From the NCBI GenBank assembly GCA_016213525.1, contig JACRAE010000005.1, forward strand, positions 17,405-81,404: a stretch of DNA of 64,000 bases, given 5' to 3'. Origin of the DNA: Candidatus Aenigmatarchaeota archaeon (lineage in GTDB: Archaea; Aenigmatarchaeota; Aenigmatarchaeia; CG10238-14; SCSR01). Every line of letters begins with the position of its first letter. The first letter of the stretch is position 1. Below the pieces are notes generated by a model that made no database searches, had not been told where the DNA came from, and saw nothing but the letters and a program-made list of their open reading frames with translations. Below are positions 897-4,569 of this stretch, one piece after another. The position numbers and the translations under genes are program-made.

Positions 897-923
897 TTAA
901 CGGCTCGCGACCACTCGCGGTGG

Positions 924-3900
924 TCAGCCTATGTAGCCGGACACGCCCATCGTGTCGTCTTCCTTCTGGCGCACGCGCTTCTGCCTCTCGACGAACTTCT
1001 CGTAGTGCGCGCGCACCTCCTTCGAGATGCTCGGCGTCAGCTTCTTCAACGCGTCTTCGAAGTGCTTTGACTTGACTTCGTCCGCCTTGACGTCCTCCCT
1101 CAGGGCGTTCATCGCGGCCTCCCTGCAGAGCGAGTCCAAGTCTGCACCCGAGAATCCGTCGGTAGACTTTGCTATTTCCTTCAGGTCTATCCCTTTCAGC
1201 GGCATATGATTTACATGAACTTTCAATATTTCTAATCTTGCCTTTTCGTCTGGGGGAGGTACCATTACGTATCTATCGAACCTACCTGGTCTCAATATTG
1301 CAGGATCTATAATGTCTGGTCTATTCGTAGCCGCAATAACTACGACTCCCTTTAATTCTTCAAGACCAGACATCTCGGTTAGGAGTTGGGATACTATACT
1401 TTCACTCGAATGTTCCCCTCCAGATATATTTCTTTTTGGAGCTAACGAATCTATTTCATCAAAGAATATTACTGTGGGAGCTACCTGCCTCGCTCTTCGG
1501 AAGAGGTCGCGTATCATTTTTTCCGATTCACCCACCCACTTACTTTTTAGTTCCGGCCCCTTAACAGATATGAAGTTCGCACCGCTCTCATTTGCAACGG
1601 CCTTCGCGAGTAGGGTCTTACCTGTACCTGGAGGACCATAGAGCAAAATTCCTTTTGGAGGTTGTATACCCATTCTTTCGAATCCCTCTGGATTTTTCAA
1701 TGGCCATTCGACCATTTCTATTAGTAATTGTTTCACTTCCTCAAGTCCACCTATGTCTTTCCATTTTACTTTAGGAATTTCAACTAGGACTTCACGCATA
1801 GCAGAAGGTTCTACTACTCTAATAGCATTATCGAAGTCGTCTTTTGTTACACCCTTCTCAAGTTTTTTAATTATGTCTTCAGACAAATCTTCTTCCTTCC
1901 AATTTATTTCTGGAAGAACTCTTCTTAGAACACTCATAGCCGCTTCTTTTGTAAGTGCCCATAAGTCAGCACCCACATAGCCATATGTTTTTTCAGCCAT
2001 GTCTTTAATAATTTTTTCTTTAAGTTTCTTTTCTATTGGTGTCCAGTTTTCTCCCAATAGAATTTTTATACCAGATTCCAGCTTTATCCAAAAATCTCTT
2101 GAGTTATTTGATATACCTAGATAACTTTGGATTATTTCTTTCTGTTCATCATCTAATTTAGGTAAAATTCTGTTTTTAATATTTTCTATAGAACTTAAGT
2201 CCTCAAACTTCTTCAATATAATTTCCTTTTTTTGTCTATACTCAATATTTTTGACATGAGGCCCTGTTAGAATCTCTTCAATATCCTTTATACTATAAGC
2301 ATTTAGTATGTTAAATTTTTCCTCTTTAGACAAACTGTATTCTTTTTGTATATCCTCTAAGAGCAAATTCTTGAATATTGAAAATATTTCCTGATAGAAT
2401 GTTACATGATTCTGGAGTACTCCATTATTGATTAAATATATATTTTTAGAAAATATTTCAGTTTCTTCTTTTTCACGACCAAGTTGTTTTATCAAATTAT
2501 TTTTTTGAGATATTTCATCTTTTTGGGCATTAATTTCGTTATCTATCCTTTGTATCTGATTTGGTAAAATTGTTTTTATTTTTCTATCTACATTGGATAT
2601 GTCAGAATCTATTTGTTCAATTTCGCTCTGAAGTTCCTTGTATTTAGCGGCTCCCTTTTCAGATTTGAAAGCTATATGAGACGTAGAATGTCCTATAATC
2701 TGATCCGATAAATTTTCTATATCGTCTCTGAATTTTTTTTCTTTGTTTTTTAACGTTTTTAATTCTTTTTCATATGAATCTATTTCAGATAATATTTTAT
2801 CCTTGTTTTTTTCTAGGTGTTTTATATCATCCTCGTGTTCCTTAATTTCATCTTCTGCTCGTTTTGTATTATTTTGTATGTTCTTTATTTTGGATTTGAA
2901 ATCATCTTCGATATTTTCTTTTTTGAATTTTTCAGCTAATTCATTGAGTCCATTTTGAACTATTAGTAAATCTATTGGGGGATCAAGTGGCATATTTGCA
3001 GTGTGTATTTTCAATATCTCTAATCTACCCTTGTAATCCGGCACTGGTATTTCAATTTCTCTATCAAAACGTCCTGGTCTTCTTAGAGCAGGATCTATTG
3101 CATTTTGTCTGTTTGTAGCAGCTATTACTATGACCTTGCCTCTTTTCTTAAGACCATCCATGAGTGTGAGTAATTGAGAAACTACTCTTCTTTCAACTTC
3201 TCCTGTAGCATCTTCTCTTTTCGGAGCGACGGAATCAATTTCATCAATAAATATTATTGATGGGGCATTTTTTTCGGCATCTTCAAATATTTTACGTAAA
3301 TTTTCTTCGGACTGACCATACCATTTGCTCATTATTTCTGGTCCAGAAATTGATACGAAGTTCGCACCGCTCTCACTCGCAACGGCCTTCGCGAGTAGGG
3401 TCTTACCTGTACCTGGAGGACCATAGAGCAAAACACCCTTCGGTGGTTCCACTCCAAGTTTATCAAAAAGTTCTGGGTGTCTGAGTGGTATTTCAATCAT
3501 TTCACGTACTTTTCCTATTACTGGACCCAATCCTCCAATATCTTCATAACTTACGATTGGCATAGTTCTCTCTTCTATTTTCATAGCTTCTGGAAGTTCT
3601 GCCAAAATGTCCAAATCGGTGACGTCAGTTATCTTAACTATAGAATTACTTGGATCTGTATTTGTCACAATGAATCTAACTTCTCCTGCTAACGGTGTAA
3701 ATATCATATCTTCGAATGGATTGGAGCCGAAAAATTCTTCGAATATGTTTCCCCCTCTGGCACGCTTCCTGACGACAGGCGACGGAATCAATATGTCTCC
3801 CTTCGCGACCGGGCGCATGTAGATGTTCTGCTTGATCAGGTTCGGCGATATGTGGATTATCATTCCCTTCTCTGCAGGGGCTATCGTGACGCGCTTGGCC

Positions 3901-4193
3901 TCCTTAACTTCTGCTTTCTTGACTTTTACTAACTCCCCAACGCCGCTCCCAGAGTTCCTCCTGGTTATCCCGTCCATGCGAATAATATTCAAACCAACGT
4001 CTGCGGGGTACGCGCGCATCGCTATCGCCGCGGTCTTCCTGTTCCCCTCTATCTCGACCACGTCGCCCTCTTTTATGCTGAGCTTGTTCATGTTGTTCGA
4101 GTCTATCCTGACGATTCCCCTGCCAGCTTCCTCCCTCGCGGTCAGCTCGCCGACCTTCAATTTCGTGTCTGAGCCGGGCGTTTTCTCTGCCAT
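924..4193 (-). CDS. cdc48: Cdc48/VCP/VAT-type double-ring AAA+ ATPase with a ~330-aa insertion in the D1 lid
   Basis: 1089-aa ORF. N-domain GRGIVRID...GDVVEIEG. Two Walker A GPPGTGKT, Walker B IIFIDEID and VIFFDEID, and two ATNR..IDPA(L/I)LRPGRFD second-region-of-homology segments. Confidence 0.92.
1567..1648. repeat. 82-nt GC-rich patch (D2 Walker A region), ~96% identical to 3352-3433
   Basis: Hand alignment gata[t/c]gaagttcgcaccgctctca[t/c]t[t/c]gcaacggccttcgcgagtagggtcttacctgtacctggaggaccatagagcaaaa, 3 mismatches. Confidence 0.9.
3352..3433. repeat. 82-nt GC-rich patch (D1 Walker A region), partner of 1567-1648
   Basis: Same alignment as above. Flanking sequence of the two AAA domains is clearly diverged at nucleotide level. 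Confidence 0.9.
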
Positions 4194-4194
4194 A

Positions 4195-4569
4195 TTAGAA
4201 ATCTTCCTCTTCCTGCATTATCTTCTTTTTCATCGGCCTCATTTCCTTGAAAAGCTCGTCTCCGTCGTCTAGGAGGACCTTGAACGTCCTCATCATGACC
4301 TTCTTGCTCCAGTCGTCGAAGAAGTCCATCATCTTGTCGGCGTCCCCCTCCGGCACTAGGAAAGAAGACTGGTCGACCTTCTCGTGCGGCATCTCCTCGA
4401 TCACGCCCTCGCGGTGGTACACGTACTTCTTCTTCCCTCCAGGAACTGTCTGGGTCCAGCCGTAGAGCTCCTTGTAGAACTTCGTCTTCTCGGAGTTGCT
4501 GACCCCGGAGGACTTCATAGTGAACGTGAACATCACGGCCTTCTTTTCCTTCCTTTCGTCCTCGGACAT
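4195..4569 (-). CDS. Hypothetical protein (124 aa), translationally coupled to cdc48
   Basis: The TAA stop lies 1 nt from the cdc48 ATG. TATA-like tttatata sits ~25 nt upstream of the ATG. Alternating beta/alpha-like pattern (AVMFTFTMK / KTKFYKELYGW / YVYHREGV) and an acidic tail. Confidence 0.6.
   Translation of the reverse strand: MSEDERKEKKAVMFTFTMKSSGVSNSEKTKFYKELYGWTQTVPGGKKKYVYHREGVIEEMPHEKVDQSSFLVPEGDADKMMDFFDDWSKKVMMRTFKVLLDDGDELFKEMRPMKKKIMQEEEDF

Follow-up and report, generated by a model that had tools for sequence, protein, structure and literature searches.

A composition mosaic within the single cdc48 gene of an Aenigmatarchaeota genome: probable import of an AT-rich ATPase core with an orphan helical insert

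Introduction

The classic mosaic genes are the penicillin-binding-protein genes of Neisseria and Streptococcus, which were formed by interspecies homologous recombination. Among archaea, interspecies recombinants are known in haloarchaea and discontinuous conversion tracts in Sulfolobus. Here we analyzed cdc48, which encodes a double-ring AAA+ ATPase, in a 64-kb stretch of DNA (C3:17405-81404, hereafter the window) from a 662-kb, seven-contig genome of the Aenigmatarchaeota, a DPANN lineage according to the named homologues. As in the mosaic genes, an internal block of this cdc48 (hereafter the query) differs from the remainder in composition, divergence and phylogenetic tree, while the reading frame and gene order are intact. 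In contrast to the classic cases, the target is an essential AAA+ unfoldase of which this DPANN archaeon has a single copy. Further, the block spans both ATPase rings, lies about 50 points apart in the guanine-plus-cytosine content (GC) of third codon positions (GC3) and brings in an orphan insert of 322 residues, and there is neither a sampled donor nor an evident selective agent. We consider that the query is probably a mosaic gene generated by homologous recombination, conditional on read-level confirmation of both joints.

The locus also resembles the co-conversion that accompanies intein and intron homing, in that stretches of donor-type coding sequence, similar in length, adjoin the insert at both ends and cdc48 of many relatives carries inteins. 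Unlike in intein homing, however, the insert has neither intein or endonuclease domains nor homologues, a structure model predicts that it stays in the protein as helices, and its site differs from the intein sites of the relatives.

The M domain of ClpB/Hsp104 is a coiled coil that interrupts the small subdomain of the first AAA+ ring. Similarly, the insert of the query is predicted by the model to form a long helical insertion at the junction of the large and small subdomains of the first ring. In contrast to ClpB/Hsp104, the host protein is a classical-clade Cdc48, and the insert is about 2.5 times longer, with an extra helical domain.

Results

Base composition switches twice within cdc48

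The original prediction, based on hand counts of short samples, was that an AT-rich ATPase core lies between GC-rich coding ends in cdc48. Sliding GC reproduced this contrast at every sampled position: values were 0.66 (window positions 901-1020) and 0.57 (4021-4140) at the gene ends versus 0.39 (1201-1320), 0.36 (3601-3720) and 0.23 (2401-2520) in the core. The remainder of the window, predicted to be about 55% GC, ranged from 0.50 to 0.61. The genome has a GC of 56%, and its lowest-GC 1-kb windows lie in the tract (0.28 versus a mean of 0.563, standard deviation 0.039). GC3 was 0.6-0.97 at codons 1-150 and 1021-1089 and 0.13-0.50 in the intervening codons. The composition switch thus falls on synonymous sites and is also a switch in codon usage.

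When two change-points were fitted by likelihood along the cdc48 codons, the 5' switch was placed after codon 143 (support 142-160; window ~3714-3767) and the 3' switch after codon 996 (support 995-1017; window ~1143-1208). GC3 was fitted as 0.26 for the tract and 0.78 for the remaining codons, and the log-likelihood improved by 105 units. These positions agree with the transitions predicted near ~3755-3780 and ~1170-1200. Neither boundary was a clean break; both were zones of ~60-85 nucleotides in which GC-ending and AT-ending codons are mixed (Table 1). The junctions lie within the second half of the N domain and the lid of the second AAA+ module (D2), and coincide neither with domain borders nor with the most conserved DNA. 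Exact sequence runs common to the query and its GC-rich relatives at the junctions appeared to be only about 12 bases long, as judged by eye.

The same change-point scan was applied to the 370 open reading frames (ORFs) of at least 250 residues in the genome, and no second conserved gene with such an intragenic mosaic was detected among them. The other strong signals were a small GC3 shift (0.90 versus 0.76) in a 9013-codon ORF and those of glycine-repeat surface proteins. Two paralogous surface proteins (C3:178735-181788 and C4:41865-45686) exhibited a GC3 of ~0.3 in their N-terminal glycine-rich repeats and ~0.8 elsewhere. These dips are due to codon choice in glycine runs and not to foreign DNA.

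The mosaic gene is intact, single-copy and encodes a complete Cdc48

As predicted, the reading frame of cdc48 was not disrupted across the tract, and every AAA+ domain of the product was recognized by Pfam. The 1089-residue protein matched CDC48_N (E = 1.9e-26), CDC48_2, AAA in two stretches (E = 6.7e-100) and AAA_lid_3 in two stretches. The protein has the CDC48/VAT/p97 architecture, namely an N domain (double-psi barrel and beta-clam) followed by two AAA+ modules (D1 and D2), each with a lid. The Walker A motif GPPGTGKT starts at residues 258 and 853, and the RPGRFD arginine-finger block is present in both D1 and D2. The protein was 72-85% identical to proteins annotated as CDC48 family AAA ATPase; the usual length of these orthologues is 760-770 residues, and the query is longer by 322 residues.

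The tract sits 18 kb within the 253-kb contig C3 of a genome with an estimated completeness of 89% and an estimated contamination of 0.13%. A second cdc48 copy was ruled out as an internal donor because cdc48 is a single-copy gene in this genome. The genome encodes radA.

The closest relatives have uniform, insert-free cdc48 genes

The best full-length matches of the query protein were P0002 (85%), P0003 (84%) and P0004 (84%), encoded on contigs L051, L052/L053 and L054, respectively. These contigs have in common the gene order S8 protease, RsmB/F methyltransferase, two small ORFs, cdc48 and an exonuclease-like ORF. The cdc48 genes of L051, L052 and L054 had no insert and were uniform in composition, with GC3 of 0.80, 0.49 and 0.84, respectively. 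Because the closest syntenic orthologues are uniform and insert-free, the mosaic is not a property of the cdc48 family.

In a three-way DNA alignment of the query, L051 and L054, the query was 84-93% identical to the two relatives in the neighbouring genes and at both ends of cdc48 (85-93% in codons 1-143; 87-89% at window 901-1050). Identity fell to 62-80% inside window 1201-3750, and to 57-65% at 1951-2100, where the alignment beside the insert is partial. Over the same columns, L051 and L054 were 77-93% identical to each other throughout. The loss of similarity was therefore confined to the tract of the query. At the protein level, both ends were nearest to P0002 (96% at the N-terminal end and 85% at the C-terminal end), and four core segments were roughly equidistant from every member of the clade; the best core match was P0003, with 85% amino-acid identity. 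At third codon positions, the identity between the core and each of the available genes was 29-55%, the level expected from shared base composition alone, suggesting that the donor lineage is unsampled.

The ends and the core give conflicting trees

Trees were inferred separately for the ends (residues 1-145 and 1005-1089) and the core (residues 160-409 and 732-995). In the tree of the ends, the query was the sister of P0002 (ultrafast bootstrap 96; Shimodaira-Hasegawa-like approximate likelihood ratio test 85) on a terminal branch of 0.045, and placement of the query outside P0002, P0003 and P0004 was rejected by the approximately unbiased test (p-AU 0.003). In the tree of the core, the query fell within the same four-member, genus-level clade (95/92) on a branch of 0.23-0.25, which was about fivefold longer, and P0002 and P0004 paired without the query (99). 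Grouping the query with P0002 was rejected for the core (p-AU 0.003; log-likelihood difference 23), whereas keeping the query, P0002 and P0004 together was not (p-AU 0.18). Adding intein-containing relatives, after column selection to strip their inteins, left the result for the core unchanged. The ends and the core have significantly different trees, with the caveat that the core branch is long. The same composition profile in all orthologues together with congruent phylogenies, which the original prediction named as grounds for its refutation, was not observed, because the orthologues are uniform and the trees conflict.

Among the conserved sites, at which four relatives agree, unique replacements of the query numbered 35 of 428 for the core and 3 of 169 for the ends; the corresponding counts for the relatives were 6-12 and 3-6.

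The core contains a 322-residue insert predicted to be helical

The insert is located between the D1 motif HTxNMPL and a 12-residue D1 motif, where the D1 lid begins, and is rich in Lys, Glu, Asn and Ile. In an AlphaFold2 model of the mosaic protein built with a 34-sequence alignment, it is predicted to form helices at residues 428-498 (71 residues) and 512-589 (78 residues) with a short turn between them. The predicted local distance difference test score was 73-90 (10-residue block means) over most of these two helices. They are followed by a predicted helical domain at residues 593-735, of lower confidence. The donor-type arms that flank the insert are ~250-268 and ~264-286 codons long, and their near-equal length hints mildly at a conversion tract with the insert at its centre.

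A word-indexed search of 5.8 billion proteins for homologues of the insert returned the query alone, and a full phmmer search gave 0 matches among 1.84 billion cluster representatives, with none to the M domain. Pfam matched the insert to generic coiled-coil families only, all below threshold, and likewise reported no M-domain match. The resemblance to the M domain is one of position and helical character only, that is, an analogy and not homology. The insert was ruled out as an intein, because Pfam found no splicing or endonuclease domain; by eye, it neither starts with Cys, Ser or Thr nor ends with His-Asn. An origin by tandem or internal duplication was also ruled out, since none was found. 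A D1-lid insert in archaeal Cdc48 was not found described in a literature search. Near the ends of the insert there is a 15-nucleotide imperfect inverted repeat with 87% complementarity (2050-2064 and 2968-2982), which is probably due to chance in AT-rich DNA.

Shorter inserts were present at exactly the same site in 5 of 40 related genomes (+51, +57, +66, +89 and more than +140 residues). The carriers are L014 (G005:C55), L042 (G031), L047 (G003), L048 (G030) and L049 (G036), and their inserts are helical and rich in Lys and Glu. The first and last ~20 residues of these short inserts resemble the borders of the query insert; border comparisons gave E = 7e-9 for G003 versus G036 and E = 0.007 for G005a versus the query. 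The distribution was patchy inside one genus, the insert being present in G036 and absent from G028 and G033.

Searches for a donor or an independent assembly

An exact look-up of the mosaic protein returned no record, and in the word-indexed search the protein was a singleton with one member on one contig. A degenerate DNA pattern for a 12-residue core-specific peptide gave 0 matches in metagenome contigs and 0 in genome contigs, and a search with the whole protein revealed no related locus among metagenome contigs. Among viral contigs there was no close relative, the best match being a distant AAA protein (28% identity over 104 residues). When protein fragments spanning a junction (residues 61-260) were searched, the best match was 72% identical, and this search therefore revealed no independent assembly of the junction.

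In G001, which belongs to the same GTDB genus, the cdc48 locus was 28% GC with a GC3 of 0.09. Published Aenigmarchaeota genomes are mostly 25-48% GC (PMC8407114). Low-GC congeners are thus the rule and the GC-rich clade is the exception.

Features of the locus and other observations

Table 1. Features of the cdc48 locus (window coordinates)
Feature	Position	Strand	Basis
cdc48, CDC48/VAT-type double-ring AAA+ ATPase, 1089 residues	924..4193	minus	ORF and Pfam
Host-type 5' end, codons 1-143 (N domain), GC3 ~0.7-0.87	3765..4193	minus	composition, identity
5' boundary zone, AT-ending and GC-ending codons alternating	3740..3797	minus	change-point support and codon inspection
AT-rich core (2.56 kb), codons 144-996, GC3 0.26: remaining N domain, D1, insert, D2 up to the lid	1206..3764	minus	composition, identity, tree
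D1 Walker-A patch, GC3 0.55, relative GC-rich island in the core	3348..3413	minus	DNA comparison and permutation
In-frame orphan insert, 322 residues, codons ~410-731, 23-33% GC	2001..2966	minus	alignment to orthologues
D2 Walker-A patch, GC3 0.58, partner of the D1 patch	1566..1622	minus	DNA comparison and permutation
3' boundary zone in the D2 lid, intermediate composition	1130..1215	minus	change-point support and codon inspection
Host-type 3' end, codons 997-1089 and stop; GC3 0.8-0.97 from codon ~1021	924..1205	minus	composition, identity

The GC-rich signal of the Walker-A patches was weak (p = 0.04 in a permutation test of the most GC-rich 15-codon window), and for this reason we do not rely on these islands as remnants of the recipient gene. 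The Walker-A DNA of D1 (3348-3467) and of D2 (1563-1682) in the query is nearly identical (~82 nucleotides, 3 differences). Near-identity of this DNA within one gene was also observed in L038 (G001), L040 (G006), L030 (G028), L031 (G033) and L052, that is, in relatives of every GC content, and the sequence varies between species. This pattern in the aligned genes suggests that gene conversion continues to act between D1 and D2 across the cdc48 family.

Many cdc48 genes of Aenigmatarchaeota are 1200-1900 codons long owing to inteins at two or more sites, among them those following query residues ~290 (D1) and ~345-355 and those in D2. The intein-bearing genes are those of L043 (G002), L044 (G021), L045 (G007), L046 (G008), L047 (G003), L048 (G030) and L049 (G036); the intein-bearing proteins include P0045, P0055 and P0094, and Pfam identified intein and LAGLIDADG domains. 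The intein of G002 was more AT-rich (GC3 0.17-0.33) than its exteins.

A 124-residue ORF (4195-4569, minus strand) stops 1 nucleotide ahead of the cdc48 start codon. Its position is kept in L051, L052, L053 and L054 (124-126 residues), and it has no Pfam match; its product may be a co-expressed partner of Cdc48.

Low-GC islands were also present elsewhere in the genome. A 1-kb island of 28-39% GC (C4:78476-79477) encodes a Cys-rich, zinc-ribbon-like ORF of 184 residues and an HNH-endonuclease-like ORF of 135 residues, and is probably a small mobile element. The region C5:17250-20000 (26-43% GC) contains little long coding sequence save one ORF of 232 residues. A 10-kb region of 41-50% GC (C2:56000-66000) encodes a methyltransferase, epimerases/dehydratases, a DegT-type aminotransferase and glycosyltransferases, and is a typical low-GC glycosylation island.

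Discussion

We conclude that the query is probably a real recombinant, in which the core was imported from a low-GC congener that is itself probably unsampled. The original prediction had proposed replacement of the core through recombination with a low-GC donor. The replacement is supported by the uniform, insert-free orthologues, by a collapse of identity that is limited to the tract and by the discordant trees; the donor itself was not found. The proposal is refined in two respects, namely that the donor would be congeneric and that the boundaries are graded and not clean. The recipient is a ~56% GC Aenigmatarchaeota lineage, a sister species of the L051 and L054 populations. Judging from the sequence comparisons, the donor appears not to be a distant lineage but to belong, as an unsampled member with a long branch, to the same genus-level clade. 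We infer the presence of the mosaic joints in the DNA of the cell, the direction of transfer and the mechanism.

The following course of events would fit this reading. The recipient cdc48 would originally have been GC-rich and insert-free, like the genes of L051 and L054, and DNA would have been taken up from a low-GC congener in whose lineage the helical insert where the D1 lid begins had already become enlarged. Codons ~144-996 may then have been exchanged through RadA-dependent homologous recombination or gene conversion, with the 966-nucleotide insert carried in between two homologous arms of ~0.8 kb each. The resulting hybrid protein would have a native N-terminal domain and C-terminal tail, whereas both ATPase rings and the long helical appendage would be foreign. 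A single import from a congener would explain at once why the composition switches, why similarity drops locally, why the trees disagree and how the insert arrived. A donor and a mechanism are plausible, given the low-GC relatives in the same genus and the RadA encoded by the genome. Three points weigh against such an import. The main objection is that the DNA of donor and recipient would have been only ~70% identical, which is low for homologous recombination. Further, the conflict between the trees is one node deep and lies on a long branch, since the core stays in the same small clade. Finally, the mosaic joints rest on a single contig, because no other assembly has the mosaic, the junctions, the insert or a near-identical donor.

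The last point leads to the possibility, given as the alternative in the original prediction, that the contig is chimeric, namely that the assembler entered the insert-bearing cdc48 of a co-sampled low-GC relative near codon 145 and exited near codon 1000. Like inter-genome chimeras in metagenomes, the query has a block of foreign composition within a conserved gene of a metagenome-assembled genome, on one contig only, and neither junction was found in any independent assembly searched. Since the supposed donor is a member of the same genus-level clade, the two organisms could have co-occurred, and the absence of the orphaned GC-rich core (~1.6 kb) from the bin says little because such a fragment is probably too short to bin. 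However, a chimera needs two wrong joins at homologous, in-frame positions within a 253-kb contig, between partners whose GC3 differs as 0.78 and 0.26 and whose shared runs at the junctions (~12 bases, by eye) are below the usual assembly k-mers. Unlike in such chimeras, the joins lie in poorly conserved zones away from the most conserved DNA, the Walker-A patches, and the boundaries are graded in composition instead of being single switches. No further segment of this type was found in conserved genes of the genome, and the contamination estimate is 0.13%. We therefore consider an assembly chimera to be a serious but unlikely explanation.

Evolution of the core in place, by fast local change that followed the origin or arrival of the insert and was driven by AT-biased mutation or relaxed constraint, is improbable. 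In its favour, the core and the ends fall in one and the same four-member clade, retention of the core with P0002 and P0004 was not rejected (p-AU 0.18), and the long branch is made mostly of conservative replacements. However, no known process takes GC3 from ~0.8 to 0.26 over 2.5 kb, with limits inside domains, while the rest of the gene and the genome stay at ~0.8. The sister relation to P0002 seen in the ends was rejected for the core, and the synonymous turnover is complete, with third-position identity at the composition-only level. As a sub-case of real recombination, a fast-evolving, AT-rich cdc48 of the same clade borne by a virus or plasmid could have recombined with the chromosomal gene. 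Such a copy would jointly explain why the core is low in GC, why its branch within the clade is long and why it has an orphan insert, and other low-GC islands of this genome carry genes resembling those of mobile elements, for example the HNH-type ORF at C4:79073-79477. In contrast, viral contigs yielded no close relative (best match 28% identity over 104 residues), the neighbours of cdc48 include no mobile-element genes, and gene order is conserved with the relatives. There is no direct support for a mobile copy, and we regard this origin as very improbable.

A broader hypothesis, which we consider doubtful, is that the D1-lid site of Cdc48 is a hot spot of exchange in Aenigmatarchaeota, at which helical inserts with related borders (from 50 to more than 320 residues) move as cassettes between lineages. 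This hypothesis fits the data in that 6 of 41 genomes, including that of the query, carry an insert at the site, the distribution is patchy within a genus, and the arms are nearly symmetric. Gene conversion of the break-repair type would then move the insert together with ~0.8 kb of adjoining donor coding sequence on either side, which would amount to endonuclease-free homing of a functional module within an essential gene.

If the joints are an artefact, the locus is a warning that a contiguous, low-contamination bin can conceal an in-frame chimera in a housekeeping gene. If, as we favour, they are real, both motor rings of the sole Cdc48 of a symbiotic archaeon with a reduced genome would have been replaced by the rings of a relative. 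The exchange would have taken place at ~70% DNA identity and with a synonymous GC lower by about 50 points, suggesting that homologous recombination in DPANN archaea can be very permissive. It would also mean that an essential machine can gain a large new appendage in a single step.

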